64,000 nt of DNA from Alphaproteobacteria bacterium (GCA_964291675.2 OZ219866.1:3424001-3488000), one strand, 5' to 3'. Shown: positions 34,801 through 59,091, counted from the first letter of the stretch. Made by a program: numbers and translations. The notes: generated from the letters alone by a model not told the origin.

Positions 34801-35203
34801 ACACGATCAGCGCCAGGCGGACGATGTCGGCGACGAAGAACGGGCTGATGCCGGCGAAAATGCCCCACAGCGACATCTCCGGCATGATGGTCTTGAGCAC
34901 GAACACGTTCATGCCGATCGGCGGCGTGATCAGGCTGATCTCGGTCACCATGATGACTACGATGCCGAACCAGATCAGGTCGAAGCCGAGGCTCTGGACC
35001 ACGGGGAAGAAGATCGGCACGGTCAGCAGGATCATGCCGATGCCCTCGAACACGCAGCCCAGCGCGATATAGATCAGGCAGATCACCAGCACGACGGTGA
35101 TCGGGGCGATCTCCAGCGAGTTCACCCAGTCGACGATCTGGTTGGGCATACCCGAGATGTTCATGAAGTTGGACAGGATGATCGCGCCGAAGGCGACGCT
35201 GAA
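34754..35203 (-). pseudogene. TRAP large permease DctM, 3' part (interrupted)
   Basis: FDLIWFGI..EISLITPPIGMNVF; reading frame continues at 48780-48920 after removing the insertion. Confidence 0.88.
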
Positions 35204-35374
35204 GTAACCCTCCGGCGTAGGCCGCCTGTTGAGCAGGCGCAGGCTTTCAGCGGGGATTGGGGGCTGATCCGCTTGGATTAATCGAGGTTTTGGGGAAGGT
35301 GCCCCCCGGCGATCTTGCAAGAAGGCCGCCGGAGGGCTTGTCTCGGTGACAGCTACATCAACTGAGACGCCCCA

Positions 35375-35989
35375 ATGTCGCACAAGCTGTTCCGTCACTC
35401 CATCCTCTGCAACGCCCGGGTTTGGGACTTTCTGAAGCAGGTCGACGCAGCCGAGGCGGAGGCCTGCCGTGCGGTGGGCTGTCCTCACTGCGGCGGGACG
35501 CTTCACAGCGCGGCCTACCCTCGCAAGCCGTACGGTCTGGCGGCGGATCTTCGGGACGATGTGCGGCGCTTCAGCCTGTGCTGTTCGGTGTGCAGGCGCC
35601 GGGTGCGTCCTGCCTCGGTGCGTTTCTTCGGTCGGAGGTTCTACGTCGGTGCGCTGTTCCTGCTGGTGAGCGCACTGGCGCTGACCGGCGGGGTGCGGTT
35701 GCAGACGATCGCGCGGCGCTGTGGGGTTCCGGTCTCGACGCTGAAGCGCTGGCGTCGCTGGTGGCTGGACGCCTTCCCGGCGACCCCGGAGTGGGCGGCG
35801 AAGCGGGGCGAGCTGGCGACACCGGCCGGGGAAGCGCCTGTGCGCCGGCTGCTGCGCCTGATGCGGGGCCGGGGCCTGCGGGCGCGGCTGCTGCGGAGCC
35901 TGGTCTGGCTGATGCCGTGGACCGGTTCTTGCGCGCTCGGCGCCGGGCCGGCTTCGCCCGCAGAAAGCGTTTCTGTCATGAACGGATAG
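35375..35989 (+). CDS. Transposon-associated Zn-ribbon + HTH protein (DUF6431-like)
   Basis: CPHCG...CCSVCRRR; IARRCGVPVSTLKRWRRWW. Confidence 0.7.
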   Translation: MSHKLFRHSILCNARVWDFLKQVDAAEAEACRAVGCPHCGGTLHSAAYPRKPYGLAADLRDDVRRFSLCCSVCRRRVRPASVRFFGRRFYVGALFLLVSALALTGGVRLQTIARRCGVPVSTLKRWRRWWLDAFPATPEWAAKRGELATPAGEAPVRRLLRLMRGRGLRARLLRSLVWLMPWTGSCALGAGPASPAESVSVMNG

Positions 35990-36038
35990 GGGCTCTTACA
36001 CCGGCATCTCCCCAACAGGGCGAGGGAGGGATGCCGGG

Positions 36039-37493
36039 ATGGACAGCAACGACGGGAGCGAGCGTCGCGACCGGTGGGCGCGGCTGCGCTTCGCGGTGGT
36101 CGGGCCGCTTCTGGCCTCGCCGCCGCCGAAGGGGAAGCTGCGGGCCGAGCTGGAGCGGCTGGCCGGACGCGAGTGGGAACATCCGTCCGGCAAGGGGCCG
36201 GTGCGCTTCTCGGCCTCCACGATCGAGCGCTGGTACTACCAGGCGCGGGCGCAGGAGCAGGACCCGGTCAAGGCGCTTCGCCGAAAGCCACGGGCCGACA
36301 TCGGCCGCGAACGGGCGATATCGGCGGCACTGATCGAGGTGTTGCGCGATCAGTACCGGGCGCATCCGTCGTGGTCGGCACAGCTGCACCATGAGAACCT
36401 GGCGGCGCTGGTCGCGGCCGATCCGGCGCTCGGCCCGATGCCGTCCTATGCGACGCTCACCCGGGCGATGCGGGCTCGCGGGCTGGTGCGCAAGCGCCGG
36501 CGCAAGTGGCACGAGAGCGAGGCGCGGCCGCCTGTCCAGGCCCGCGAGGTACTGAGCTACGAGGTCACGCGCAGCCACGCCCTGTGGCACAGCGATATGC
36601 ATACCGCCAAGTGTCGTGTGCTGACGGCCTCGGGCGAGTGGAAGACGCCGATCCTTCTGGGCTTTCTCGACGACCACTCCCGGCTCGGCTGCCACCTTCA
36701 GTGGTATCTCGCCGAGACCGCAGAGGTCTTCGTCCATGGGCTGTGCCAGGCGTTGATGAAGCGGGGCCTGCCGCGGTCCCTGCTGACCGACAACGGCTCG
36801 GCGATGACCGCCGGCGAGGTCGAGGAAGGGTTGCTCCGGCTCGGCATCGCGGGGGTCACGACGCTCGCGTACAGCCCGCATCAAAATGGAAAGATCGAGA
36901 CTTTCTGGGGCACGGTCGAATCACGCCTGATGGCCCAGCTCGAAGGCGTCGACGCGCTCACCCTGAAGATGCTCAACGACGCCACCGTCGCCTGGCTGGA
37001 GCAGGACTATCACCGCCGCGAGCACCGCGAACTCGGCATGTCGCCGCATCGGCGCCTCGCCGGGAGCGTCGACGCATCGCGGCCCTGCCCCGGCGCGGCC
37101 GAGCTCAAGGCGGCCTTCCGCATCACGAGGAAGCGCATGCTCCGGCGCTCGGACGGCACCGTCTCGGTCGAGAACATCCGCTACCAGATACCGCCGCCGT
37201 GGCGCCACCTGCGCGAGGCCTGGGTCCGCTATGCGCGCTGGGACCTCAGCAGCGTCGATCTGGTCGACGGCCGGGGCGGCGAACGGCTGTGCACGCTCTA
37301 TCCCCTCGACAAGCGCGGCAACGCCGATGGTGTGCGCCGTCCCATCGGCCCCGGCGACGACGATGGCAAGGGCGGCGAGGGGACAGGCGGACTGCCGCCG
37401 CTGCTCAAGAGCATGCTCGACGCGCAGGCTGCAACCGGCCTGCCGCCGGCATGGCTTGCCTTCGATGACACCCGCGATGATGGAGAACGCTGA
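36039..37493 (+). CDS. DDE transposase/integrase, Mu/TnsB-like
   Basis: N-terminal HTH (STIERW), WHSD, LDDHSR, TDNGS, NGKIETFW; Mu-like C-terminus. Confidence 0.88.
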   Translation: MDSNDGSERRDRWARLRFAVVGPLLASPPPKGKLRAELERLAGREWEHPSGKGPVRFSASTIERWYYQARAQEQDPVKALRRKPRADIGRERAISAALIEVLRDQYRAHPSWSAQLHHENLAALVAADPALGPMPSYATLTRAMRARGLVRKRRRKWHESEARPPVQAREVLSYEVTRSHALWHSDMHTAKCRVLTASGEWKTPILLGFLDDHSRLGCHLQWYLAETAEVFVHGLCQALMKRGLPRSLLTDNGSAMTAGEVEEGLLRLGIAGVTTLAYSPHQNGKIETFWGTVESRLMAQLEGVDALTLKMLNDATVAWLEQDYHRREHRELGMSPHRRLAGSVDASRPCPGAAELKAAFRITRKRMLRRSDGTVSVENIRYQIPPPWRHLREAWVRYARWDLSSVDLVDGRGGERLCTLYPLDKRGNADGVRRPIGPGDDDGKGGEGTGGLPPLLKSMLDAQAATGLPPAWLAFDDTRDDGER

Positions 37494-38326
37494 TGAACCG
37501 CGAACACCTCACCCTGTACGGGCTCAAGTGGAACCCGTTCGCCCCTGACCTCCCGGTCGACAGCCTGATGGCGACTGGCGCCGTCGACAGCTTCTGCCTC
37601 AGGATCGAACGCCATCTCGTGCGCCACGGCGGCTTCGCACTGATCGCCGGAGAGCCCGGAACCGGAAAGAGCGTTGCCCTGCGCCTGCTCGCCCACCGGC
37701 TCGGGCGATGCGACGGGCTCAGGGTCGCCGCCATCACCCACCCGTCCTCGAGACTGTCGGACTTCTACCGCGAGATCGGCGAGCTGTTTGGCGTCGACCT
37801 GCTGTACAACAATCGCTGGGCCAGCTTCAAAAACCTGCGCCAGCGCTGGCTCGCGCATCTCGATGACACCCGCATGCGCCCGGTGTTGCTCATCGACGAG
37901 GCCCAGGAACTGCTGCCCTCGGTGTTCTCCGAGATCCGCCTGCTCGCGTCGACCGACTTCGACTCGCGCGCCATCCTCTCCGTCGTCTTCGCCGGTGACA
38001 ACCGCCTGCTCGACCGGCTCCGCCAGCCCGACCTGCAGCCCATCGCCTCGCGTATCCGACAGCGTCTGCTGATGACCCGGACCGAGGACGCCGACCTGGC
38101 CGGCCTGCTCGACCATCTGCTCGAAGAGGCCGGCAATCCGGCGCTGATGACCGCCGGGCTCAGGGACACCCTCGTCACCCATGCCGCAGGAAACCCCAGG
38201 GCACTCACCGTCATGGCTGATGCCGTGCTCGCAGCCGGTGCCGAGAAGGATCGCGAGGTGCTCGACGAGAAGCTCTTCATCGAGACCCTCGGCGAGGCAC
38301 CGCCAGCCAGGCGGGCCCGGCGATGA
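37493..38326 (+). CDS. ExeA/TniB/MuB-like AAA+ ATPase
   Basis: LKWNPF, GEPGTGKS, LLIDEAQ, GNPRAL. Confidence 0.88.
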   Translation: MNREHLTLYGLKWNPFAPDLPVDSLMATGAVDSFCLRIERHLVRHGGFALIAGEPGTGKSVALRLLAHRLGRCDGLRVAAITHPSSRLSDFYREIGELFGVDLLYNNRWASFKNLRQRWLAHLDDTRMRPVLLIDEAQELLPSVFSEIRLLASTDFDSRAILSVVFAGDNRLLDRLRQPDLQPIASRIRQRLLMTRTEDADLAGLLDHLLEEAGNPALMTAGLRDTLVTHAAGNPRALTVMADAVLAAGAEKDREVLDEKLFIETLGEAPPARRARR

Positions 38327-39312
38327 CCGGCTTCCCGACACGGCCACCGGCCGAACTCGAGGAGCGGCCGCGGGAGCGGCAGTGGCTGGTCGATGCCCTG
38401 TGGAGCGAACAGGGGGTCGGCATCGTCGGCGGCGAGCCCAAGTGCGGCAAGTCCTTCCTCGCGCTGGACCTCGCCGTCGCGGTGGCTGCAGGAGTGCCCT
38501 GCCTGCGCCACTTCCGCCCCGCGGCAAGCGGCACCGTGTTGCTCTTCGCCGCCGAGGACGCCGGTCACATCGTGCGCGACCGCCTCAAGGGCATCGCCCG
38601 GGCCGCCGGCGCCGACTTCGAGGCCCTCGACATCGCCGTCATCGACGTGCCCACGCTCCGCCTCGATCATCGCCTCGACCGGCAGCGGCTGCTGGAGACC
38701 GTCGAACGGATCGGACCGCGCCTCCTCGTCCTCGATCCCCTGGTCCGCCTGCATGGCGTCGACGAGAACGCGGTTGCGGAAGTCGCTCCCATCCTCGGCT
38801 TCCTGCGCGACCTGCAGCGCCGCTTCGGGACCGCTGTGCTGCTCGTCCACCACGCTCGCAAGAGTGGCGCCAGCCGCCCCGGCCAGGCGCTGCGCGGCAG
38901 CAGCGAGCTGCATGCCTGGGGCGACAGCAATCTCTACCTGCGCCGGCGCGACGGGCAGATCGTCATGACCGCCGAGCATCGCGCCGCACCCGGCCTCAAC
39001 AATATCGAGATCGAGCTTGCCGATGACGGCGAAGGACCAGCGCTGCAGCTCCGGCGGACAGGACCTCACCAGGCTCCGCCGCAGCCGGACAGCGCCGAAC
39101 AGCGGATCGCCCAGGTGCTCGCGACAGCCGAATCCCCACTCGTGCAGTCCGAGATCCGAAAACGCGCCGGGGTACGCAACGCGACTGTCTCCGCGGCACT
39201 GCACGGGCTTGTGCGCGAGGGACGGGTCGAGCGCGGGACGGGAGGTCGCTACCGCTTCCTCGGAACCGCGGCGAACCAAGCCGACAACCCGACGGACAGC
39301 CACAACCCGTAG
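38323..39312 (+). CDS. AAA_25 RepA/RecA-fold helicase-like ATPase with C-terminal wHTH
   Basis: WLVDALW, GGEPKCGKS, LLVLDPL, LVHHARK, LRGSS. Confidence 0.85.
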   Translation: MTGFPTRPPAELEERPRERQWLVDALWSEQGVGIVGGEPKCGKSFLALDLAVAVAAGVPCLRHFRPAASGTVLLFAAEDAGHIVRDRLKGIARAAGADFEALDIAVIDVPTLRLDHRLDRQRLLETVERIGPRLLVLDPLVRLHGVDENAVAEVAPILGFLRDLQRRFGTAVLLVHHARKSGASRPGQALRGSSELHAWGDSNLYLRRRDGQIVMTAEHRAAPGLNNIEIELADDGEGPALQLRRTGPHQAPPQPDSAEQRIAQVLATAESPLVQSEIRKRAGVRNATVSAALHGLVREGRVERGTGGRYRFLGTAANQADNPTDSHNP

Positions 39313-39327
39313 GCGAAGCAGCCCCTC

Positions 39328-39381
39328 TTCCCGTTCCCGTTCCGGCGAACCCTTAAGCGTTGCAGGGAACGGGAACGGGAA
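39328..39381. repeat. Perfect 16-bp inverted repeat built from GGGAAC units
   Basis: ttcccgttcccgttcc-22 nt-ggaacgggaacgggaa. Confidence 0.85.
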
Positions 39382-39714
39382 CACCAGCGCACAATGCCCC
39401 ACGAAACTGCCTGAAGCGATCGGCCAATGGCCGAAAGCTCTGCTTACGGCCATGGCAGCCCTCTGGCGCGGGGACGGCGGCGGGTCACCCGAAGGGCCGT
39501 AGCGGAGCGAAGGAGCCGCGAAGCGGCTTGAAGCGCCGACGGCCTCGCGACACTCCCCGCCCGGCCTTCCTGCAAACGGCAGACGATCCCCATCGAATAA
39601 CGCGAAATCCGCACCATCAAACAACGTGCGCGCGCTCACTGTTCCGATGGGGGGCGTTTGGTGGGTCTGAGTGCTTGGGAAGTGGGCCCTTGTTAAGTGT
39701 CCACTTAGCGGCAA

Positions 39715-40146
39715 GTGGACACTTGGCCGATGTCGGTTGCGAGTGAGAAGCCGGGCGCGGGAAGCGGTGAGACGGCCGATCGGCGGCGCCGTCGGTGGAG
39801 CGAGGCTCAGAAGCGCCAGATCGTCGCGGAGAGCCATGAGCCTGGGGTTTCGGTGTCGGTCGTTGCGCGGCGTTACAACGTCAATGCCAACCAGGTCTTC
39901 ACCTGGCGTCGGCGGTTCCGCGAGGCGGCGCGCGACGCCGGGGCTGGCCGGTTGGTGCCGGTGGTGGTCGAAGCGCCTTGCGACGGGGAGGCCGGCGCGT
40001 CGGCGCCGTGCCGGTCGTCCGGGGACGTTGTCGCGGCGGCGGGGCGGATCGAGATTGCGCTGGCGTGCGGCGCGCGTGTGATCGTCGGCCGGGCGGTGGA
40101 CGGTGTGGCTCTGGCCCGGGTTCTTGCGGTTCTGGATCGGCGATGA
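39715..40146 (+). CDS. tnpA: IS66 accessory protein TnpA
   Basis: RRRRWSEAQKRQIVAES..VSVVARRYNVNANQVFTWRR. Confidence 0.9.
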   Translation: MDTWPMSVASEKPGAGSGETADRRRRRWSEAQKRQIVAESHEPGVSVSVVARRYNVNANQVFTWRRRFREAARDAGAGRLVPVVVEAPCDGEAGASAPCRSSGDVVAAAGRIEIALACGARVIVGRAVDGVALARVLAVLDRR

Positions 40147-40490
40147 TCCCGGTTCCGGGTGGTGTGCGGGTGTGGCTGGCGACCGGGGTGACGGACATGC
40201 GTCGCGGCATGAACACGCTGGCGCTGCAGGTCCAGGAGGATCTCGGGCGCGACCCTCACGCGGGCGATCTCTACGTTTTCCGGGGCCGTCGCGGCGACCT
40301 GATCAAGATTCTCTGGCACGACGGGGTTGGGATCTCGCTGTATGCCAAGCGGCTTGAGCGGGGCCGGTTCCAGTGGCCGACCACGTCTGGGGGCGCGGTG
40401 TCGATCGGCGCGGCGCAGCTCGGCTACCTGCTGGAAGGGATCGACTGGCGGAATCCGGTTCGGACCTGGCGGCCGTCGCGGGCGGGCTGA
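40143..40490 (+). CDS. tnpB: IS66 accessory protein TnpB
   Basis: MIPVP..VWLATGVTDMRRG, FRGRRGDLIKILWHDG, KRLERGRF. Confidence 0.95.
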   Translation: MIPVPGGVRVWLATGVTDMRRGMNTLALQVQEDLGRDPHAGDLYVFRGRRGDLIKILWHDGVGISLYAKRLERGRFQWPTTSGGAVSIGAAQLGYLLEGIDWRNPVRTWRPSRAG

Positions 40491-40561
40491 TCGGCGGGGG
40501 AGCCGTGCGGTCGGCGCGATTGTTGTAGCGCCGAATCGGGTGCTGTGATTCGATTCCGCCA

Positions 40562-41943
40562 ATGACCGGCGGATCCAACATTGCATCTCTGAAGGCGGCG
40601 CTTGCGGCGGCCGAGGCGCGGGCCGCGAACGCCGAGGCGAAGGTGTCGGACGCCGAGGCGGAGATCGCTTTCCTCAAGCTGGCGGTCGAGAAGCTCCGGC
40701 GCGAGCTCTACGGGCAGCGCTCGGAGCGCAAGCAGCGGCTTCTCGACCAGCTCGAGCTGCAACTCGACGAGCTTGAGGCGAACGCGACGGAGGACGAGCT
40801 GGCGGCCGAGCAGGCGGCGGCCGGCACGACCGAGGTCAAGGGGTTCACGCGGCGCAAGCCGGCCCGCAAGCCGTTCCCGGCGCATATTCCGCGCGAGCGG
40901 AAAGTGGTTCCGCCGCCGACATTCTGCGCGTGCTGCGGCTCGGAGAAGCTGTCGAAGATCGGCGAGGACGTGACCGAGACGCTGGAGGCGATCCCGCGCC
41001 AGTGGAAGGTGATCCAGACGGTGCGCGAGAAGTTCACCTGCCGGGCTTGCGAGAAGATCGGCCAGCCGCCGGCGCCGTTCCACCCGACGCCGCGGGGCTG
41101 GGCTGGCCCCAACCTGCTGGCGACGATCCTGTTCGAGAAGTACGGGCAGCACCAGCCGTTGAACCGCCAGCGCGACCGCTACGCGAGGGAGGGTATCGAT
41201 CTCAGCCTGTCGACCCTGGCCGACCAGGTGGGCGCGTGCACGGTGGCGCTGAAGCCGCTGCACGATCTGATCGAGGCCCATGTCATGGCGGCGGAACGCC
41301 TGCATGGCGACGACACCCCGGTGCCGGTGCTGGCCAGGGGCAGGTGCGCCACCGGGCGGGCCTGGGTCTATGTGCGCGATGACAGGCCGTTCGGCGGTCC
41401 GGATCCGCCGGCGGCGCTGTTCCGCTACGCGCGGGACCGGTCCGGCGCTCACCCGGTCGCGCATCTGGAGACCTTCGCCGGCATCCTCCAGGCCGACATC
41501 TACGCCGGCTACAACGCCCTCTATGTGGCCGGGAGATTGCCCGGGCCCGTGATCGAGGCTGCGTGTTGGGCGCATTCGCGAAGGAAGTTCTTCGATCTCG
41601 CCGACATCGCGGCCGGGAAGAGGCGCGGCAAGGACCCGCCGCCGGTCTCGCCGCTCGCGCTGGAGGCGGTGAAGCGGATCGACGTGCTGTTCGATATCGA
41701 GCGCGGGATCGTCGGCAAGTCCGCGGAGGAGCGCCTCGCCGTGCGCCGGGAGTTGAGCGCGCCGGTGCTGGCCGAACTCAAGGAGTGGATGCGGGCCGAG
41801 CGCGTGAAGCTGTCGAAACATGCCCCGGTGGCCAAGGCGATGGACTACATGCTCAGGCGCTGGGAGCTGTTCGCCCGCTTCCTCGACGACGGCCGCATCT
41901 GCCTCACCAACAATGCCGCCGAGAGGGCGCTCAGAGGTATTGC
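40562..41943 (+). pseudogene. tnpC: IS66 transposase TnpC, 5' part (interrupted at RGIA|LGR)
   Basis: LYGQRSE, LHGDDTP, CWAHSRRKF, TNNAAERALRGIA. Confidence 0.92.
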
Positions 41944-41971
41944 GACGATGGAGTCATTCTGCACCCCTTCT

Positions 41972-44044
41972 TCAAGTGTCTGAAAACATTGACATCTGAT
42001 CCCGACATGAAGCGCGACGCGGGTCTTTCCGCAGTGCCAGGGCGTTGGCGACCCGCTCGGAATGGAGGTCTTTGGCCCTGATTTGCCAGGGCGCTCCGGG
42101 AACGAGTTGCGTGGCAGGTAGCGTTCCATCCTCGATCAGGCGCCTGAGGGTATGGCTGGTCGTGCCCAACTCTTTCGCCGCCTCGGTCATGGTGCGCCAG
42201 TCGCCCTGCTTGTCCGCTGAGAGGTAGCCGTCGATCCCGTTCACACGCCGGATCGATCCGACCCGGTGAGCGGTCCAACTCTTGTGCTGCCCGGTCCGCA
42301 TACCCATCCGGTTGAGCGACGCGGCGATATGTTCGTCCGACCATCGCCCGGCCATGCTGCGTATCACTGCCAGAGCTTCCTCGGGCGTTCGGCAGCCATG
42401 TTCGCCGCTCTTGGGCTTGCGGACCCTGAGACGGGAATGACGGCCACCCATCCAGTGGATCGTCAGCAGGACGTCACGCGCCTCTTCGTCGACATCGACG
42501 ATTATGCCCATGATCAGGGTGCGCACGAGACGCTGGCGGGCGCGCATGCTCACCCCGGGCGCGTTCCAGGCGGCCTTCAGGTCGTCGGCAAGTCCGGCCA
42601 GGTCGGGGACAGTGGGCCGCGGCGACGGCATCGCGCCCAGCCTTGCTTCGCACGCCTGGACGCGTCGAAGCGCTGCCTCCCAACTCTTCTCCAGCTCGGC
42701 GGCGATCAGCCGGTTGTCCGGATCGCAGGCGGCGTAGCGCCGCTCGGCGAGCGCCGCCTCGTAGCGGGCTTGCTGCAGATCCAGCTCGGCCACCCGTTGC
42801 TGTTCGGAAAGACCCTCCGCGTTCATCCGCTCGGCTTCCAACGAGGCTTCCACCGCCATGGGCTCCACGACGCGGAGGATCTCATCGGCAACGGCCGCAT
42901 CCACACGCGCACCCCCGAACCCCAGACAGGGCTCTAGCTCGAGCTGGAGGTGTCGCCGATTGCAGCGGTAGACAGGATTGCCGGGCGTGCGACCGGAATA
43001 GGCAACGCTCATCGTGCGTCCGCAGCGTGCGCAACTGAGGAGGCCGCCAAGAAGCGCCCGCCCGCCGCGCCCCGACTTCGTGCCCCCCGCCTTGCCGAAG
43101 GCATTGGCGGCGAGCTGCGCCTGGTTGCGCTCGAACTCCGGCCAGTCGATGTAGCCCTCGTGATGGTCCTTCAGCACGACCTCCCATTCCGCCATCGGCT
43201 TGCGGTGTCCATAGCTCTTGCGCACGCGCCCGTCGACGATCTCGGTCCGCCGCTCGCTTTTGCCGTAAGCGTAGACCCCGGCGTAGAAAGGGTTCTTCAA
43301 CACCGAAATTACGTTGCGATAGCGGATCGGCGTCCAGTCGAAGGAGACCATTGTCCTGCCATCCGACGGGCGTGGGAAGCAAAGCTTCTGCCCGCTCAGC
43401 GCCAGCAACACCTGCCGCGCGCTGCCAAGCTCGCGAAACCGGGCGAATACCTGACGGATCGCTTCCTGAACCCGAATGTCGGGGTCCAGCCCCAGCCCGG
43501 CCTCGGGATGCCAGACGTAGCCGATCGGGACGCTGATGCGAAGCTCGCCGCGGGCGGCCTTGGAGCGGGCGGCCTCGAACATCCGAGCGCGCAGAACGCC
43601 GAGTTCGAACTCGCTGATCTGGCCCTTCATGCCGAGCAGCAGACGATCGTTGGGGTGGCGAGGATCGTAGATGCCATCCTGGTCGATGACGCGTGCCTCG
43701 ACGAGACCGCAGAGCTCGAGAAGATGGTGCCAGTCCCGGCCGTTGCGAGAGACCCGCGAAGCCTCGAAACAAAGCACGGCTCCAACGTCCCCGGCGCACA
43801 GCCAGGCGACGAGGCGCTCGAAACCGGGCCGCGCAACGGCACCGTCCGCCGACAGGCCCTGATCGTCGTCGATGACTTCGACCCGGGCAAAGCCGTGCCC
43901 GCGCGCCACATCGACGAGATCGTATTGGCGGCGCTGGCTCTCCAGATTGTTCCGCATCTGCTGGGGCGTGGACTGACGGACATAGACCACGGCCTTGCGC
44001 GTCAACACCGATCGCGGCAACGCTTCAGCGACGCCCATCGTCAT
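41972..44044 (-). CDS. Large serine recombinase (Y4bA/Y4pH-like) with Zn ribbon and C-terminal HTH
   Basis: AVVYVRQST, SRVSRN, LLLGMKGQISE, CARCG..YRC, terminal TEAAKELGTTSHTLRRLI. Confidence 0.93.
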   Translation of the reverse strand: MTMGVAEALPRSVLTRKAVVYVRQSTPQQMRNNLESQRRQYDLVDVARGHGFARVEVIDDDQGLSADGAVARPGFERLVAWLCAGDVGAVLCFEASRVSRNGRDWHHLLELCGLVEARVIDQDGIYDPRHPNDRLLLGMKGQISEFELGVLRARMFEAARSKAARGELRISVPIGYVWHPEAGLGLDPDIRVQEAIRQVFARFRELGSARQVLLALSGQKLCFPRPSDGRTMVSFDWTPIRYRNVISVLKNPFYAGVYAYGKSERRTEIVDGRVRKSYGHRKPMAEWEVVLKDHHEGYIDWPEFERNQAQLAANAFGKAGGTKSGRGGRALLGGLLSCARCGRTMSVAYSGRTPGNPVYRCNRRHLQLELEPCLGFGGARVDAAVADEILRVVEPMAVEASLEAERMNAEGLSEQQRVAELDLQQARYEAALAERRYAACDPDNRLIAAELEKSWEAALRRVQACEARLGAMPSPRPTVPDLAGLADDLKAAWNAPGVSMRARQRLVRTLIMGIIVDVDEEARDVLLTIHWMGGRHSRLRVRKPKSGEHGCRTPEEALAVIRSMAGRWSDEHIAASLNRMGMRTGQHKSWTAHRVGSIRRVNGIDGYLSADKQGDWRTMTEAAKELGTTSHTLRRLIEDGTLPATQLVPGAPWQIRAKDLHSERVANALALRKDPRRASCRDQMSMFSDT

Positions 44045-44524
44045 CCTCCTTCACCGGGGCGGTCGCCGCTTCCAGAAGCAACCCGGCCACTGCGCTCACC
44101 ACCGCGTCTCGTTCCTCCGAGCTCAGACCGCGCAGCGTCGGTGCGTCGAGCGGCATGCCGAGCTGTCGGGGTTCTCTCGGCGGTCGCGCTGTTACAGGCA
44201 AAGACTTCATCGCGCTCCTCTCCGCTAACGGTTCCGTCATCGGGGGAGCTATGTCGAAAACCTGGCCGACGAGAAGCTCGTGAAGTGCGGCGAGGGCGGC
44301 CGGGGAGGCACGCGGCGCGCCGATCTCCATGCCGGCGCATGACGCAGGATCAAGCATCCAGGCGGGTATCTTGATGATCAGCCCCGGCTCTACCTCGACG
44401 GAGGCCATGAGGCCGTCTGCACGCTGTTCGATAACTTCAGGGCGTACTCGCCGACCGAACAGTGCGTGCCAGCGGTAGTGGATGACGCAATCCTGCCCGA
44501 TATGGGCAGAATGAATGCGCGATC
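44025..44524 (-). CDS. Recombinase-associated accessory ORF (Y4bD/DUF5372-like N-part, with an in-frame small ORF starting at 44210)
   Basis: VIHYRWHALFG..IPAWMLD; internal RBS GAGAGGAG before ATG 44210; overlaps the recombinase start; 5' end cut by the att site. Confidence 0.6.
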
Positions 44525-44526
44525 GC

Positions 44527-44746
44527 CCTGGGCCGCAAGTCATGGCTCTTCGCCGGCTCGGACCGCGGCGGCGTACGCGCGGCGGCGATGTACACGCTCA
44601 TCGGCACCGCCAAGCTCAACGATGTCGATCCGCAGGCCTGGCTCGCCGACGTGCTAGACCGAATCGCGGACACGCCGCAGACCAGGCTCGAAGAACTCCT
44701 CCCCTGGAACTGGGTTCGGGAACAGAAGCTCGATCAGGCCGCATAG
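44527..44746 (+). pseudogene. tnpC: IS66 TnpC, 3' part
   Basis: LGRKSWLFAGSDRGG..MYTLIGTAKLNDVDPQAWL..LLPWNW. Confidence 0.92.
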
Positions 44747-44856
44747 AGCCTGCCCCCGCGAAGGCGGGGGCCAGATCGCACGCGGACCGTTTCGCTCCGA
44801 GCCAGCTGCTGCTCAAAATCAGACTGAATACCCCTGCGGTCTTCGGCGGATGCTTA

Positions 44857-46773
44857 GAGTGCCAGGCTAACTGGTGGAAGGGTAGCGGGTGAAAGTCCCG
44901 CGAAACGAAAGGAGTAGCCAACCACGTTTCTCCGCGAGCCGTGCATCGTCGGCCGTGAGGCCGGGGGTGAAGCGTCGGTAGCGGTGCATGCGGGCAGGGA
45001 TATTGAGCGCCGAAAACGAGATGGTCCGAAGTGCCGAGACGTTTAAGCTCGTCGAAGGCAACATCGTCCACACCGCAATATGGCGAGGTGTGGGGGAGCT
45101 TCGCGGCGTCGGGGACCCCATGCACGCATGTAAGCCCACCACCGGGACCTGGGAGGTCTTCACACTGCCCCGATGGTCGTATCGGGGCCGCGAAGGGAAG
45201 GAGGTATCCGAAGCCTGAGATGAACGGAGTGAAGAAGTCGGACGGGGCCATAGTACCGTCGAAGCGGGCGAACAACGGGGCGCGAGCCTCTGCGGAGTCC
45301 GTGGAGGAAAGGGCCTCGACCAAGGGGAATCCGCGAAGCGAAAGCACGCGCCGGACGCAGAGCCGGGAAAGCGTGACCCAGGCCGCCGAGCGGATACGTC
45401 AAGCTGCAACGAGGAAACCGCAGGAGAAACTGACGGCGCTCCTGCATCATGTCACGCCGGACGCGCTGCGCTGGGCCTTCCACGCGCTGAAGCGGGACGC
45501 CGCGGCGGGGGTGGACGGCATGACATGGGCCGAGTACGCGAACGGGCTGGAAGAGCGGCTGCTCGACCTGCACCGGCGCGTACAGTCCGGGGCGTATCGG
45601 GCGCCGCCGGTCCGGCGGGTAGAGATACCCAAGCCGGATGGCGGGACACGACCGCTCGGCGTCGCCGCGCTGGAGGACAAGATCGTCCAGAAGGCGGTGA
45701 CGGAGATCATCCTGACGCCGATCTACGAGCCGGTCTTCCTCGGCTTCAGCTACGGGTTCCGACCGGGGCGCGGGGCGCATGACGCACTCGACGCGCTTGC
45801 TGTCGCCATCAATCGGCGGAAGGTCAACTGGGTGGTCGACTGCGACATCCAAAGGTTTTTCGATTCTGTTTCGCGGGACTGGCTCGTCCGGTTCCTTGAG
45901 CACCGGATCGGGGATCGGCGGGTGATCCGGCTGATCGCCAAGTGGCTGAAAGCCGGCGTCATGGTCGATGGCCGGTGGGAGGACACGCAGCAGGGCACGC
46001 CGCAAGGGGCGATCGTCTCAGCCACGCTGGCGAACGTGTATCTGCACTATGTCCTCGACCTCTGGTTCCATCGCAAGTGGCGGCCCGAAAGGGCAGATGG
46101 CGATGCCATCATCGTACGCTACGCCGATGATGTGGTCGTCGGCTTCCAGCGCAAGAGGGACGCGGAACGCTTCCTGCATGCGCTTGGGGAACGGCTCGGC
46201 CAGTTCGATCTGGCCCTGCATCCGGCCAAGACCCGGCTCATCGAGTTCGGCAGGTTCGCGGAAGTGGACCGCCGGGCACGGGGGCTGGGCCGCCCGGAGA
46301 CGTTCGACTTCCTGGGCTTCACGCACTATTGCAGGACGACCAGGAGCGGGCAGTTCGGGCTCGGACGCAAGCCCGTTGCAAAGCGGATGAGCCGCACCCT
46401 GAAGCGCATCGCGGAGGTTCTGCGGCGGCGCAGGCACCACGACCTCCACGAGGTCGCCCGGTGGCTGGGGCGGGTAGTCAACGGATGGCTGAACTACTAC
46501 GCCGTCCCGACGAGTGCCCGCTTCCTGCGAAGCTTCACCTACATCCTGAAACGGATATGGCTGAAGGCGCTGCGCCGACGGTCGCAACGGGATCGCTTCA
46601 GCTGGCAACGGCTGCAAGCCCTGGTTGACCGATACTGGCCCAAGCCATGGATCCGACACCCGTGGCCGGGGCAGCGGTTCGACGTCAAATACCCGAGGTA
46701 GGAGCCGGATGGCTTAACGGCCACGTCCGGATCTGTGCGGGGGGCGCCGGGAAACCGGCGTCCCTACCGCGAC
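44857..46773 (+). mobile_element. Group II intron 1
   Basis: 5' GAGTG (GUGYG variant); DV gagccggatggcttaacggccacgtccggatc; DVI ending CCCTACCGCGAC; EBS1 loop TAAGC (45044-48) pairs with exon GCTTA. Confidence 0.88.
45220..46701 (+). CDS. ltrA: Group II intron reverse transcriptase/maturase
   Basis: AAAGVDG, IPKPDGGTRPLG, SYGFRPGR, GTPQG, RYADD, FDFLGF, GWLNYY; no HNH domain. Confidence 0.95.
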   Translation: MNGVKKSDGAIVPSKRANNGARASAESVEERASTKGNPRSESTRRTQSRESVTQAAERIRQAATRKPQEKLTALLHHVTPDALRWAFHALKRDAAAGVDGMTWAEYANGLEERLLDLHRRVQSGAYRAPPVRRVEIPKPDGGTRPLGVAALEDKIVQKAVTEIILTPIYEPVFLGFSYGFRPGRGAHDALDALAVAINRRKVNWVVDCDIQRFFDSVSRDWLVRFLEHRIGDRRVIRLIAKWLKAGVMVDGRWEDTQQGTPQGAIVSATLANVYLHYVLDLWFHRKWRPERADGDAIIVRYADDVVVGFQRKRDAERFLHALGERLGQFDLALHPAKTRLIEFGRFAEVDRRARGLGRPETFDFLGFTHYCRTTRSGQFGLGRKPVAKRMSRTLKRIAEVLRRRRHHDLHEVARWLGRVVNGWLNYYAVPTSARFLRSFTYILKRIWLKALRRRSQRDRFSWQRLQALVDRYWPKPWIRHPWPGQRFDVKYPR

Positions 46774-46774
46774 C

Positions 46775-47032
46775 CTTGCGCAGTTCGGATTGCGCGTTGA
46801 AGTAGTCGACGCAACTGCTGACAAAGATATTCGCGCCGGCCCTGGCGGTCGCCTCGATTGCCGATTCGAACATGCGCGGCGCCTTGTTCACGCGCCCGGT
46901 CTCCGACACCTCGGCAAGGATGCCCTGCGGCACGCGATCCAGAGCCCGCATCACCCGGGTTGTGACGTGTGGTAGCCCACCACTCGCCCCTTCGTAAGCG
47001 CGCCACCAGCGCACTTTCCACATAGCCAGCAC
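46775..47032 (-). pseudogene. Possible gene fragment cut by the IS66 right end
   Basis: Open frame running into the IS end; no recognisable motif. Confidence 0.2.
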
Positions 47033-47166
47033 CCCCTCTCGGGGGCCGCGGCTTCGTTCAAACAGGTTCAGCAGGCTCGCTCACGCGAACCTGCTGAGCC
47101 CTAAAGATTTGCGCGGCTCCCCTTCCATGCCCGGTTCCCGGGTCGGGCCCGCGAAATAATCCCGCG

Positions 47167-47181
47167 GGGGGCTCCGCCCCC
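47167..47181 (-). promoter_or_regulatory. GC hairpin 3' of the FGE gene (DGR target-type hairpin)
   Basis: GGGGGC-GGA-GCCCCC about 28 nt after the stop codon. Confidence 0.6.
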
Positions 47182-47208
47182 GGACCCCCGAGGTAAACAA
47201 GTAAGGAC

Positions 47209-48159
47209 TCAAGGCGTAAGCGTCCGGGCAACGCGGAAGCCGAAGGTGACGACCCGATTCCCGACACTGTACCCGAGGCGGATGGCGGAACGGAGGAACC
47301 ACGGTATGTTGCTCCACGAACCGCCGCGCAATATGCGCTCCCCGCAATCACCGCCCGCCACCCAAGCGCTGCCGTCCGACGGTGCGCCCGCATAGTCACT
47401 GTGCCAGCAGTCCTCGACCCATTCCGATACATTGCCCGACATGTCATGCAAGCCGAAACCGTTCGCCGCAAATGAACCAGCCGGAGCCGTTTCACGGCCG
47501 TCCCAGCGGCTGCCGCAGCCGCGGCAGTTCGCCCGGTTCCGGCCCACCGAATCCCCCCAGCTATAGCGCGTCCGCGTCTTCGCGCGCGCCGCATATTCCC
47601 ACTCCGCCTCCGTCAACAGCCGGTACTCCTTCCCCGTCTTCCGCGACAGCCACGCGACATACGACCGCGCTTCGTTCCAGTTCACATGGATGACCGGCCG
47701 ACTTCCACGGCCCCAGCCCTTGTCATCGGGGCGATACCCGTCGCACCCGCCAGCGGATACGCAGGTATCCCATTCCGCAAACGTCACCTCGTGTTTGCCC
47801 ACCGCAAAGGGTTGCGAGATCATCACCTCATGCTGCAGGACTTCATCTCCGTCACGGCCTACTTCCGACCTCGGCGAGCCCATGACGAACGAACCCGCCG
47901 GCACCACCACCATTTCCGGACAGGACGGGCAATCCCGGAATGTTTCCCCCGCCTTCGGCCCCACTTCCGCTTCGGCCAGCAGCGCCGTCGGAACAAACCC
48001 CGCACGCCCGCCTGCCTCGACACGGCCCGCTGCGTCATGCAGCGCAATCTCTTCTGCTGCCTTTACAACATCTTCAACGCTTCCGGCTGTTCCGTGGCTG
48101 GCAAGAAGCGAAGCGGCTACGAAGGCCACGGCGGAGAGGGTACGGGCTATGAGTTTCAT
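47209..48159 (-). CDS. Secreted FGE-sulfatase (SUMF1/CLec-fold) protein, candidate DGR target
   Basis: Signal peptide; FRDCPSCPEMVVVPAGSF, RLLTEAEWEYAARA, NGFGLHDMSGNVSEW, RGGSW..GFRVARTLTP. Confidence 0.9.
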   Translation of the reverse strand: MKLIARTLSAVAFVAASLLASHGTAGSVEDVVKAAEEIALHDAAGRVEAGGRAGFVPTALLAEAEVGPKAGETFRDCPSCPEMVVVPAGSFVMGSPRSEVGRDGDEVLQHEVMISQPFAVGKHEVTFAEWDTCVSAGGCDGYRPDDKGWGRGSRPVIHVNWNEARSYVAWLSRKTGKEYRLLTEAEWEYAARAKTRTRYSWGDSVGRNRANCRGCGSRWDGRETAPAGSFAANGFGLHDMSGNVSEWVEDCWHSDYAGAPSDGSAWVAGGDCGERILRGGSWSNIPWFLRSAIRLGYSVGNRVVTFGFRVARTLTP

Positions 48160-48246
48160 GTTGGCACCATCATCAGATCGTTTGTCGTCGGCGCGATCCG
48201 CTTCAGTATCTCATTGTACTGCTCTTCGTCCTCGTCCCACTCAGGC

Positions 48247-48779
48247 GTAACCCTCCGCTGAGGACCGCCTTTTGTCAATCGGCTTTCAATACTGACCCCC
48301 TATATCGGCGTGCAAAATTAACCCCCTGAGAGGCACGGCGGAGGTTGTCCCGGTAGCCAATAGGGGGGACCCGCGCGGCTTCGTGTAGCGCCTTGCGTTA
48401 CGCGAAGCGAAGCCGCGTGGGGGGTCCCTGTTGGCTACCGGGGTATCGCCCTCGGAAGACGCAGTTGGTTGTTCGCCGGCTCCGACCGCGGCGGCGCCCG
48501 TGCGGCGACGATGTACACGCTCATCGGCACCGCCAAGCTCAACGATGTCGATCCTCAGGCCTGGCTCGCCGATGTGCTCGGCCGCATCGCCGAGACGCCG
48601 CAGAGCCGGCTCGACGAACTCCTCCCCTGGAACTGGGTCCCGGAGCAAAAGCTCGATCGCGCAGCATAGAGCCGGCCCCCGCGAAGGCGGGGCCGGACCC
48701 CGCCCGGCGCTTAATCGCCAGCATCGCCCCGCCGACAAACTCAGCCCGAATTAGCCCGCGGTGTTCGGCGGATGCTTAC
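48247..48779 (+). mobile_element. Internally deleted IS66 (mini-IS66) containing an IS21-type end
   Basis: Left end GTAACCCTCCG, right end CGGATGCTTAC; tnpC 3' fragment GIALGRRSWLF..LLPWNW (48442-48669). Confidence 0.85.
48273..48441. mobile_element. IS21-family terminal fragment
   Basis: TGTCA followed by two tandem ~24-nt repeats atcggctttcaatactgaccccct / atcggcgtgcaaaattaaccccct, then palindrome cccggtagccaa..ttggctaccggg. Confidence 0.72.
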
Positions 48780-49410
48780 ACGCTGAACACCATGGCGGTG
48801 GTCTGGTCGGCCTCGATGAGCGCGCTGCAGAACCCGCGCCAGCCCATCTTCCTGCGCGAGACCGCGAAGGCGACCGCGCCCACCGCGCCGATCCCGCCCG
48901 CCTCGGTGGGGGTGCCCGGCACCTTGGTGAGGTGCTTGACGTAGGGCGTCATCTTGAGCTTCCAGACGTCGCCGATCGGGAAGACCAGCCCGTCGACGAT
49001 CCCCTTGGACACCACGTCGAACGCCTTGACGCCCGGCGTGAGTACGACCGCCGCCCCGTCCGGCCGACCGCCTTGGCGACGTCGCCCGGCGGCGAGCGCA
49101 GCTTCATCCGCTTCATGTCCGCCACCGACAGGATGGGGTCCTTGAGGCTGAACAGCTCCCCGCCGCCATGCATGACGTAGCCGAGGAACTTGACGCCCTT
49201 GTGCTGGTTCTTGGCCTCGAAATACTTCTTGTGGGTGCGCCAGAGCGCGGTCGCGGTCGAGGCCGCGTCGGTGATGCTGAAGGGGAGCGTGCCCACCTGG
49301 TCGAGCGACAGCCGCTTGCGCTCGAAATTGTTGTACATCACCGTCGCATCGGCGATGCCGGAGGTGATCATCTTCCACTGGCGCGGCGCCGGCGCCAGCG
49401 GTTGTCTCAA
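48780..49410 (-). pseudogene. Degraded TRAP operon: frameshifted dctP fragment fused to mid-dctM
   Basis: QWKMITSGIAD..MKLRSP [frameshift] ..SKGIVDG..KVPG joined directly to TPTEAGGIGA. Confidence 0.78.
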
Positions 49411-49444
49411 TCCGCGGACATGCTATCGGCGGGATTCGGGAGGT

Positions 49445-56807: not shown

Positions 56808-58790
<1,983 letters not shown>

Positions 58791-59091
58791 CCCCTGTCAT
58801 GGCCTGCGCGGCGCTGTCCGGCCGACAGGGCAGGAGAGGCGCGCGGCGCGATGCGGCACATCGGGCAAGCGCCTCGACGCACCCTGTCGGCCGGACAGCG
58901 CCGCCCGAAGGGTCGCGCCCGGGCGCCCGCCCGCGGCGTCGCGGGCCTCGATCGTATTGCCCGATACGCTCTTCGGCCCGCTCCTGGCGGGACGAACGCC
59001 CGGGCGCGACGCAGGCCGTGACAGGGGTGAGAGGTCCGGGCTAGGCTTCGGTTCGGCTGCAAGAACCAAGCCTGCGGATGGGAGGATTGAA

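Follow-up and report, generated by a model that had tools for sequence, protein, structure and literature searches.

The window analyzed here is a 64,000-nucleotide stretch of a high-G+C alphaproteobacterial genome of 4.8 Mb assembled in 2 contigs (genome G000, contig C2, positions 3424001 to 3488000; coordinates below are those of the window unless a contig is named). It contains a composite transposon of the IS66 family of insertion sequences (IS), whose full-length arm, IS66 copy 1, is interrupted by a DDE transposon related to Tn6049, a large serine recombinase element, and a group II intron. We consider it very probable that this is a genuinely nested structure in which each of the three guests arrived by its own chemistry, with the recombinase element being specific for one site in the transposase gene tnpC and carrying a gene, orf1, that would be expressed only from a circular form, and the DDE transposon having no fixed target. 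The 2.6-kb recombinase elements apparently represent a widespread, undescribed family that is found almost only inside the IS66 transposase gene. A more far-reaching reading, in which they would be undescribed obligate parasites of IS66 whose split orf1 senses excision, sets the direction of recombination together with a second small gene, orf2, and gates the mobility of the host element, is tentative and in our view falls a little short of an even bet.

Composite IS66 transposon and its empty sites

The composite unit comprises 13,576 bp (35204 to 48779) and lies inside a minus-strand remnant of dctM, a gene for a DctM-type permease. It is flanked on both sides by the same 8-bp sequence, ACGCTGAA (left copy, 35196 to 35203; right copy, 48780 to 48787), and target duplications of 8 bp are typical of IS66. 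This sequence is present three times in the window, and 16 of 100 shuffled sequences also reached 3 matches, so that the count means little by itself. What is decisive is its position at both termini, as two of the copies directly adjoin the outer IS66-type ends (GTAACCCTCC... at 35204 and ...GGATGCTTAC at 48779). In silico removal of positions 35204 to 48787 yields a single continuous minus-strand frame through the DctM-like C terminus. The empty site itself was found in Logan contigs of public sequencing runs, four of which (X1, X2, X18, and X19) supplied the joints discussed here. A 306-nt contig from X1 covers positions 35061 to 35195 and resumes at 48780 to 48914, skipping 13,584 bases; the shorter side of this joint measures 135 bases in X1 and 24 bases in X19. 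Thus, related populations carry the empty site. The first-pass annotation had described an 8-bp duplication around a unit of this length, and the placement of the repeats, the empty-site contigs, and the restored frame all bear it out: the duplication was made by the move of the composite.

The left arm, IS66 copy 1, spans 11,571 bp with its guests (35204 to 46774). Guest boundaries were set by comparing each guest with its further copies in this genome, and subtraction of the guests (11,571 - 4,413 - 2,583 - 1,917) leaves exactly 2,658 bp, in which tnpA, a tnpB for 115 amino acids, and a tnpC for 533 amino acids are all open. This in silico reconstruction reproduces the IS66 element of the same length, with an open tnpA-tnpB-tnpC set, that had been proposed earlier. 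Each guest is also skipped exactly in the public contigs, with skips of 4,413 bases (X18 and X19) for the transposon, 2,583 bases (X18 and X19) for the recombinase element, and 1,917 bases (X18, X19, X1, and X2) for the intron. All four empty sites therefore occur in public runs, and natural populations still hold every intermediate. These skips and the boundaries uphold the earlier description of the unit as a composite of IS66 copy 1, cargo, and a 533-bp mini-IS66 with discrete guests.

All segments of IS66 copy 1 are on the plus strand. They include the outer 26 bp of the left inverted repeat (GTAACCCTCCGGCGTAGGCCGCC..; 35204 to 35229), tnpA with an HTH_Tnp_1 domain (39715 to 40146), tnpB with a TnpB_IS66 domain, starting from an ATG that overlaps the tnpA stop (40143 to 40490), the 460 N-terminal codons of tnpC, ending with ..NNAAERALRGI(A) (40562 to 41943), its 73 C-terminal codons, (A)LGRKSWLFAGS..., and stop (44527 to 44747), the right end up to ..CGGCGGATGCTTA, which forms the 5' exon and intron-binding site of the intron (44748 to 44856), and the terminal C of the right inverted repeat, severed from the rest by the intron (46774). 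IS66 elements are defined by GTAAGC-like terminal inverted repeats and an 8-bp target duplication; here, the terminal repeats (GTAACCCTCC.. and GTAAGCATCC..) agree at 18 of 30 bases, and the gene order (tnpA, tnpB, and a DDE-type tnpC) is that of the family. The tnpC product matches the Pfam domains DDE_Tnp_IS66, zf-IS66, and LZ_Tnp_IS66, with all IS66 Pfam matches above the cut-offs, and scores 393.9 bits against NCBIfam transpos_IS66 (cut-off, 180). Perfect 8-bp duplications also flank two other IS66 copies in this genome. Substantial tnpC sequences are present at six genomic loci, and 5 of the 6 contain at least one guest. In its present state, copy 1 has its left repeat split 26 bp from the tip, a transposase without its last 73 residues, and a right tip 1.9 kb off its repeat; the guests would jointly disable both IS66 ends and the transposase. 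This tnpC is now broken, and the genome has no intact tnpC of the copy-1 type; the composite must have moved either before the break or with help in trans.

The right arm is a mini-IS66 of 533 bp (48247 to 48779, plus strand) with a 28-bp left repeat, a palindrome, a tnpC tail, and a right end. It is only 82 to 89% identical to the right end of copy 1 and thus derives from another IS66 lineage. Between the two arms lies a cargo segment of 1,472 bp (46775 to 48246), which has no second copy in the genome and contains a complete FGE-sulfatase/PvdO-like gene (47209 to 48159, minus strand). The inner flanks are unrelated, CTTGCGCA after copy 1 and ACTCAGGC ahead of the mini copy, which is what mobilization of the intervening DNA by two IS-derived ends would lead one to expect. 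As in other composite transposons, two IS-derived ends bracket the cargo and share one target duplication. IS66 copy 1, the 1.5-kb cargo, and the 533-bp IS66 deletion derivative moved together into the dctM remnant, with the outer ends supplied by the full copy on the left and by the mini copy on the right. The three guests, which are unrelated to one another, entered the full copy afterward.

Several other features of the locus were recorded. Upstream of the DctM tail on the minus strand (48788 to 49440), a DctP-like fragment (..KGIVDGLVFPIGDVWKLKMTPYVKHLT..) appears by eye to be fused to about 190 DctM residues; apparently, the target locus was already a deletion remnant before the transposon arrived. 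The palindrome of the mini-IS66 (48349 to 48442, 42-bp arms) recurs at C2:2437-2554 and C2:9674-9844 with 91% identity. Its tnpC part begins with ..GIALGRRSWLF, within about 8 nt of the crossover site of the recombinase element, and the deletion that created the mini-IS66 may have involved the attachment (att) site. A joint from 41933 to 48440 in X19, considered as a deletion of the locus, was rejected, as it arises where a related, intact tnpC cross-aligns with the tnpC tail that the mini-IS66 carries.

A serine recombinase element specific for one tnpC site

The recombinase element (2,583 bp, 41944 to 44526) lies on the minus strand, antisense to tnpC. It encodes a recombinase of 690 amino acids (41972 to 44044, minus strand), 100% identical in the 3 genomic copies, with the Resolvase, Recombinase, and zinc ribbon domains of large serine recombinases (Pfam IDs PF00239, PF07508, and PF13408, all above cut-off) and an excisionase-type HTH_17 domain at the C terminus (residues 618 to 661). 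Residues Y21, R23, Q24, and S25 are invariant in 17 homologs, with S25 being the putative catalytic serine. The same crossover dinucleotide, GC, is found at both junctions (41942-41943 at attL and 44525-44526 at attR), and the 2,583-base skip correspondingly has 2 ambiguous bases. The end motifs, TCATTCTGCAC (41954 to 41964) and GGGCAGAATGA (44504 to 44514), are each 10 bp from this core. The GC falls in the codon that follows the NNxAERxxRxI motif conserved in tnpC. Read in the direction of tnpC, the left junction is ..R-x-I / GC / N10 / TCATTSTGCAC and the right junction is GGGCAGAATGA / N10 / GC / N-CTS-GGN-CGN-AAR. Joined ends would form a symmetric site of two 11-bp inverted motifs with 10-bp spacers and a central GC. 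Judged by its junctions, the element has a 2-bp core within a dyad and no target duplication, and it would have arrived by conservative site-specific recombination. It would move as an excised circle, and precise excision would restore tnpC.

The 3 genomic copies share one junction codon and are hosted by two IS66 types, which have 42% identity in TnpC. Two copies of the type-2 IS66 are 100% identical over 5,040 bp, each with its own perfect and different 8-bp duplication. Two unoccupied target sites, with cores GC and AA, remain in the genome. In a scan of one genome per species, we found 351 relatives of the recombinase and examined the best 80 (64 to 89% identity, 70 assemblies), whose flanks were each scored for a tnpC of canonical spacing and strand. 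tnpC was found on both sides at 40 loci, on one side with the other off the contig at 19, and on one side with the other negative at 2; 9 loci were not assessable, and 10 were negative on every assessable side. Altogether, 61 of 71 assessable relatives are inserted at the same tnpC codon, NNxAERxxRxIA|LGRK. The recombinase gene is antisense to tnpC in all 61, and the host TnpC proteins in the surveyed loci show from 28 to 92% identity to the three query TnpCs. This element family is specialized on one tnpC site across very diverse IS66. The 70 assemblies come from several proteobacterial classes, in addition to some metagenome bins labeled as other phyla. Homologs are also found in 264 plasmid records, many of them rhizobial (134 at 60 to 80% identity). 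Plasmid pMspAR07c of Mesorhizobium sp. AR07 is annotated with tnpA, tnpB, a “recombinase family protein,” and a “transposase domain-containing protein,” and pSmeAK21a of Sinorhizobium meliloti AK21 is a second named carrier.

Both ends were located in 62 elements, most of which are 2,584 to 2,596 bp long. The attR core among these is GC in 48, AC in 5, and one of seven other readings in the remainder, with GC at both junctions in 41 of 62; other cores seen in some elements are AC, AG, or CA. The core follows the target, as illustrated by L023, which has AA at both junctions in a host IS66 that encodes I-K rather than I-A. At four loci (L028, L038, L041, and L069), the tnpC-proximal junction (attL, in the tnpC orientation) has AC and attR has GC, which fits integration into a site with a one-base mismatch. 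Three others (L026, L034, and L089) are flanked by two C-terminal or two N-terminal halves of tnpC in inverted order, as expected after inversion between oppositely oriented copies.

A gene apparently split across the ends of the element

Two small genes lie between the right end of the element and the recombinase gene, all on the minus strand. The DUF5372-like orf1 (44241 to 44525) encodes about 100 amino acids (..HSAHIGQ..YRWH..GRRV..AWMLDP..C..) and displays third-position periodicity and has 46 distinct homologs; orf2 (44028 to 44210) encodes about 60 (MK.LP..PRQL.M.LD..LRGL..ER...LA.LLLEAA..DDD), its end overlapping the recombinase ATG. Variability over orf1 is about 0.53 at third positions versus 0.75 to 0.9 at the other positions, with the pattern phase-shifted over orf2, which argues that both are coding and under protein-level constraint. 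In pSmeAK21a, the Prokaryotic Genome Annotation Pipeline (PGAP) annotates orf2, as a 60-amino-acid hypothetical protein, and not orf1.

The reading frame of orf1 opens right at the border of the element, and the integrated form provides it with no start codon. At the far end, just past the recombinase stop, there is a Shine-Dalgarno sequence, GAAGGGG, with an ATG (41955 to 41971, minus strand; ATG at 41957-41955) that in the integrated element has nothing downstream to translate. When the two ends are joined in silico, this ATG falls 27 nt upstream of the HSAH(I/V)GQ motif of orf1, in frame. It is present in 61 of the 62 elements, and the joined frame is likewise open in 61 of 62. Among 45 distinct ends, the ATG is located 14 to 16 nt past the recombinase stop in 44, and a purine-rich, Shine-Dalgarno-like motif, mostly GGAGG, precedes it in all 45 (with a permissive pattern). 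Because the start signals and the body of orf1 lie at opposite ends and come into frame only across attP, the junction of the circular form, orf1 would be translated only from the excised circle. The circle of Tn4451 reportedly forms a promoter for TnpX, which provides an analogy for such circle-only expression. The orf1 product would then act as a state-dependent accessory of recombination. orf2 is coupled to the recombinase gene, and in the more far-reaching reading it would, together with orf1, control the choice between excision and integration without a classical, separately regulated directionality factor. If the elements are indeed parasites of IS66, their target consists of the most conserved transposase codons, which the host IS could not easily mutate away; and, since tnpC would be whole again once the element has left, its excision would at the same time control whether the host IS can move.

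In the ESM Atlas, DUF5372 clusters were the top matches for orf1 (30 of 30 hits; score, 0.93). True DUF5372 genes are found about 1 kb upstream of a serine recombinase gene in 7 of 8 loci, where they head operons. An AlphaFold model of the orf1 product (predicted local distance difference test [pLDDT] score, 78.7) consists of a small β-barrel plus helices. A search of the orf1 profile against PDB sequences detected nothing (best E value, 0.48, to ribosomal protein S17), PHROGs gave no hit for either orf1 or orf2, and the word DUF5372 was absent from the searched literature. Two of the DUF5372 loci lie in genome G000, which contains a duplicated operon (C1:1134601-1137780 and C2:3649530-3652714), near both contig ends, for a DUF5372 protein, a helix-turn-helix (HTH) protein, and a 718-amino-acid serine recombinase that has a MerR-type C-terminal helix and is 37% identical to the recombinase in the window. 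At positions 44262-44263, in orf1, the window copy reads CCTGG, against CCTTGG in the other two genomic copies, and a T is inserted here in contigs from each of the four runs.

A group II intron in the IS66 right terminus

The intron (1,917 nt, GAGUGCC...CCGCGAC; 44857 to 46773, plus strand) has the ribozyme domains and the reverse transcriptase (RT)/maturase open reading frame (ORF) of a mobile group II intron. Domains D1 to D4 match Rfam RF02005 at 44892 to 45118 on the plus strand (170.3 bits; cut-off, 49), the ORF (45031 to 46701, plus strand) matches NCBIfam group_II_RT_mat, TIGR04416 (369 bits; cut-off, 300), and domains V and VI were recognized by eye at about 46702 to 46773 (plus strand), with a bulged A at 46766 that lies 7 nt from the 3' end. 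An alternative 3' end at ..CCCTAC (46768) was rejected: the pairing of domain VI, a CGCGAC shared by every copy, and the 1,917-base skip all point to 46773. The intron has no recognizable endonuclease domain and is inserted between the last A and the C of the IS66 right terminus. Each of the three genomic copies (99.7 to 100% identical) interrupts a right terminus of the IS66 type, ..GGAKGCTTA|C, with a single base left beyond the insertion point; the copies follow ..GCCGGAGGCTTA or ..GGCGGATGCTTA and precede C (after GGCTTA or TGCTTA). UAAGCC at intron nucleotide 275 is a candidate exon-binding site 1 (EBS1) that pairs with GGCUUA. The repeated EBS1-pairing homing site and the exact intron-less allele suggest that the intron would have reached the IS66 terminus by retrohoming. 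Its relatives in 5 other genomes (57 to 72% RT identity) home at other sites, so that the IS66 terminus represents a recent retargeting.

Some of these and other introns display further peculiarities. At five loci (L099, L102, L107, L110, and L112; the G006/G275 set), the upstream sequence resembles by eye domain V of another intron (..GAACCGGATGCC..GGCACGTCCGGATCTG|GTGTGCC), and these look like introns nested in introns; the site at L105 differs. The intron copy at C2:1578242 is in a solitary IS66-type right terminus, for which no partner left end was found, beside DNA of seemingly lower G+C (C2:1576400-1578242; L001:2400-4242); by eye, small membrane-like ORFs are nearby, between IS110-type and IS1595-type transposase genes. 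The window also contains a second, unrelated group II intron (56834 to 58790; Rfam D1-D4-4 and domain V), whose RT is about 30% identical to that of the first and which has 4 genomic copies. Downstream of it lies a repeat of about 255 bp (about 58791 to 59045) that has approximately 17 further copies in the genome, and this intron, too, looks tied to a repeated element.

A Tn6049-like transposon without a fixed site

The DDE transposon, a relative of Tn6049, comprises 4,409 bp (35230 to 39638, plus strand; ends TGAGCAGGCGC...GCGCGCTCA). It encodes a zinc finger/HTH protein (35375 to 35989), an rve transposase (36039 to 37493), an AAA_22 (MuB/TnsC-like) ATPase that matches the PHROG “DNA transposition protein” (37493 to 38326), and an AAA_25 (RepA/DnaB-like) ATPase with a winged helix (38323 to 39312). 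It thus combines an rve transposase and a separate AAA+ ATPase with TG..CA ends (TGAGC..GCTCA) and a 5-bp duplication. The rve and HTH_32 matches stay below the gathering cut-offs of Pfam, and the match to NCBIfam IS481 reaches 114 of the required 224 bits, which makes the transposon a relative, not a member, of IS481. The transposase is 52% identical to that of the Tn6049-type element of Cupriavidus metallidurans CH34, with the same gene order. The AAA_25 gene follows the module in 35 of 80 metagenome loci, and relatives with E values below 1e-60 were found in 3 of 400 sampled other genomes of the class (G089, G138, and G240).

The first-pass annotation took the left end of IS66 to be the target of this transposon. 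That claim is contradicted by its four genomic copies (99.9 to 100% identical), which occupy unrelated positions: 26 bp inside the IS66 left end, codons 3 and 4 of tnpB in a second IS66, the middle of tnpC in a third, and an IS4-family transposase gene. The duplicated bases also differ (CTGT, CCGGT, CCGGA, and ACCCG). Perfect 5-bp duplications flank the other three copies, and an identical twin IS66 without the transposon provides an exact empty site, confirming the duplication length. In the window, the duplication CTGT (35226 to 35229 and 39639 to 39642) is 4 bp long; a T lost from a T-run (35226-35230, 39639-39643), either in reality or by assembly error, would explain this. Only 1 of the 80 metagenome relatives has an IS66 tnpC in its flank. 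Among the 17 metagenome loci whose flanks were scanned with Pfam, 4 have an IS21, IS91, IS4, or IS630 gene, 2 have a recombinase or integrase gene, and the rest have ordinary genes. An automatic search for ends and 5-bp duplications in the 80 relatives returned pairs at chance level only, and L115 and L117, whose ends were found by similarity, have no duplication, so that the target preference of the wider family is read from the 17 flank scans only. Since repeats of 400 bp or longer account for 5.2% of the genome, the location of 4 of 4 copies inside IS elements is unlikely by chance, although purging of harmful insertions could contribute. The transposon would prefer, or survive best in, other mobile elements, with no fixed IS66 site.

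The earlier proposal that the guests target IS66 thus stands in part. Our survey supports it for the recombinase element (3 of 3 genomic copies and 61 of 71 relatives) and the intron (3 of 3) and does not for the transposon. A relative of the latter with 77% identity (L114:3202-6273) has an AAA_25 gene that stops at residue 199 and is followed on the opposite strand by an 818-amino-acid frame with serine recombinase domains; here, too, one mobile element may have cut into a second one.

Alternative explanations

A number of observations weigh against the reading proposed here. The advised minimum for the shorter side of a joint is 30 bases, and the transposon joints have 25 and 22 and one of the recombinase element joints has 27. 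X18 and X19 are perhaps from the source sample and may be either DNA or RNA, and their 1,917-base skip could reflect spliced RNA; that X1 and X2 are DNA is itself a guess. A circular form or attP junction was never directly observed: among short contigs of about 2.6 kb, there were repeat contigs stopping at the element ends and no prefix-suffix overlaps indicating circles, and the 2,583-base skip may reflect IS66 copies that were never occupied rather than excision. The flank survey covers only the best 80 of the 351 recombinase relatives, and 10 of the 71 assessable loci are outside the canonical tnpC position: L013 and L038 are in other DNA, L051, L060, and L070 are without tnpC, and L016, L017, L034, L042, and L089 have rearranged tnpC pieces nearby. 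For serine integrases, a palindromic core should not fix the orientation; the commonest core, GC, is self-complementary, and the elements nevertheless all point the same way relative to tnpC at the 61 positive loci. The orf1 of the window carries a 1-nt deletion (44262/3) that shifts the frame of its 3' end into orf2 and may be either a real defect or a homopolymer assembly error. Only 3 of 36 orf1 members gave any hit to DUF5372 (Pfam ID PF17342; best E value, 0.012), below the 25-bit cut-off, and Foldseek found nothing significant for the orf1 model (best E value, 0.19, to Tudor/SH3-like barrels). For the intron, domain V was not detected with Rfam RF00029 at E values up to 0.1, and a simple complement search found no EBS2. 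Finally, the IS preference of the transposon represents four events in one genome.

The nesting might be a chimera of repeats from separate places. Each guest has 3 to 4 near-identical genomic copies, the 2-contig genome has an estimated completeness of 93.7% and contamination of 6.7%, none of the listed contigs spans the whole stretch, and the 4-bp duplication and position 44262/3 are two possible homopolymer errors. We nevertheless regard such an artefact as extremely improbable: the linking IS66 segments (39643 to 41943 and 44527 to 44856) are single copy, with the next best match being 82% identical, every insertion has exact ends with frames that open once it is removed, and the independent runs supply exact, complementary empty sites. 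Passive accumulation, with IS66 as neutral ground, insertions elsewhere purged, and no targeting, would suit a dead IS as a harmless site, a transposon without a fixed site, and a host locus that was already a gene remnant. It fails for one identical codon in 61 loci whose IS66 are 28 to 92% alike and for the identical phosphodiester in 3 of 3 intron copies, and the 4 of 4 transposon copies in IS DNA, given the 5.2% of repeats, are hard to obtain by chance, though purging could contribute; we hold this explanation to be very unlikely.

The opposite possibility, that all three guests, transposon included, recognize specific conserved IS66 features (the left end, the tnpC motif, and the right terminus), could draw on the 3 of 4 transposon copies inside IS66-family elements and on the closest metagenome relative (L113, 84% identity), which has an IS66 tnpC 1.7 kb off. 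Still, the insertions in IS66 are at three different places, with the fourth in an IS4-family gene, the duplicated pentamers differ, flanking IS66 was seen in only 1 of 80 metagenome relatives, and Tn6049 itself is reported in the metal resistance gene pbrU and in genomic islands (PMC2864759); this makes uniform targeting decidedly unlikely. It could also be argued that the recombinase element is a switch of IS66, the regulated excision of which turns the transposase on, as with the skin and fdxN elements. tnpC would be whole again after precise excision, the recombinase matches XisF best among the NCBIfam models, albeit below threshold, and the 100% identical element in two IS66 copies with different perfect 8-bp duplications fits transposition after transient excision. 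We consider a switch unlikely, since identical recombinases in two IS66 types with 42% identical TnpCs imply that the element moves independently of the host IS; in addition, it is a many-copy repeat with contigs ending at the element ends, unoccupied target sites exist in the same genome, and it has its own expression signals for a circular form. A nested composite with three separately arriving guests accounts best for these observations.

Novelty and implications

IS66, composite transposons, IS-homing introns, and Tn6049-like transposons are already known. No earlier account of a serine recombinase element in IS66 tnpC or of the split orf1 was found in open-access papers and bioRxiv, a search that did not include ISfinder, TnCentral, or supplementary files. 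The structure documents, base by base, mobile elements parasitizing a mobile element. It also brings to light a common element that is hidden by annotation, as PGAP reports a “recombinase family protein” beside IS66 fragments. The element offers a compact, self-contained serine recombinase system whose natural site, about 46 bp long, is defined and whose core dinucleotide varies in nature. Its start codon, split across attP, would be a testable excision-sensing device, which bears on how serine recombinases choose direction without a phage-style directionality factor, and DUF5372 gains its first functional context. For IS66, the three independent silencings by its own parasites would represent a new kind of brake.

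Comparison with known systems

Among large serine recombinases that act through a circular intermediate, the best comparison is with the clostridial elements Tn4451/Tn4453 (TnpX) and Tn5397 (TndX). The likeness lies in excision and insertion by a large serine recombinase via a circle, which for the element described here would be the predicted route. The clostridial elements carry resistance or conjugation cargo and have looser targets, whereas this element is minimal (2.58 kb) and is confined to one transposase codon. Moreover, the Tn4451-type junction completes the promoter of the recombinase gene; here, it would complete the start codon and ribosome-binding site of a DUF5372-like gene. The skin (SpoIVCA) and fdxN (XisF) elements are similar in that an element inside a gene restores this gene by precise excision, and in NCBIfam the recombinase scores best against XisF (74.8 bits; cut-off, 375). 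However, skin and fdxN are single-copy, host-domesticated, and developmentally timed, whereas the element in IS66 is multicopy, is spread across bacterial classes, and interrupts a gene of another mobile element.

For the intron, the closest parallels are in Sinorhizobium, where RmInt2 reportedly homes to both inverted repeats of ISRm17, Sr.md.I1 is found in an IS66 transposase ORF, and intron insertion is said to block IS spread (PMC4615759, PMC5894124). The homing site within an IS, terminal repeats included, is shared. In contrast to RmInt2, the intron in the window is of the Rfam D1-D4-6 type and is found one base from the IS66-type tip, at right ends only (3 of 3). Tn6049 of C. metallidurans CH34 is described as a 3.5-kb element with 12 copies, “often associated with genomic islands” (PMC2864759). 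It shares with the transposon in the window the gene order (small ORF, IS481-type rve transposase, “GspA-like” AAA ATPase) along with the 52% transposase identity. The latter differs in its length of 4.4 kb, the fourth gene for a RepA/DnaB-like AAA_25 ATPase, and the location of all four copies inside IS. Lastly, the unit as a whole has in common with IS66 and ordinary composite transposons the tnpA-tnpB-tnpC genes, the GTAAGC-type repeats, the 8-bp duplication, and the IS-derived ends that mobilize DNA. It stands apart from ordinary composites in that one arm is a 533-bp nonautonomous derivative of a different IS66 lineage, while the autonomous arm has been disabled three times.

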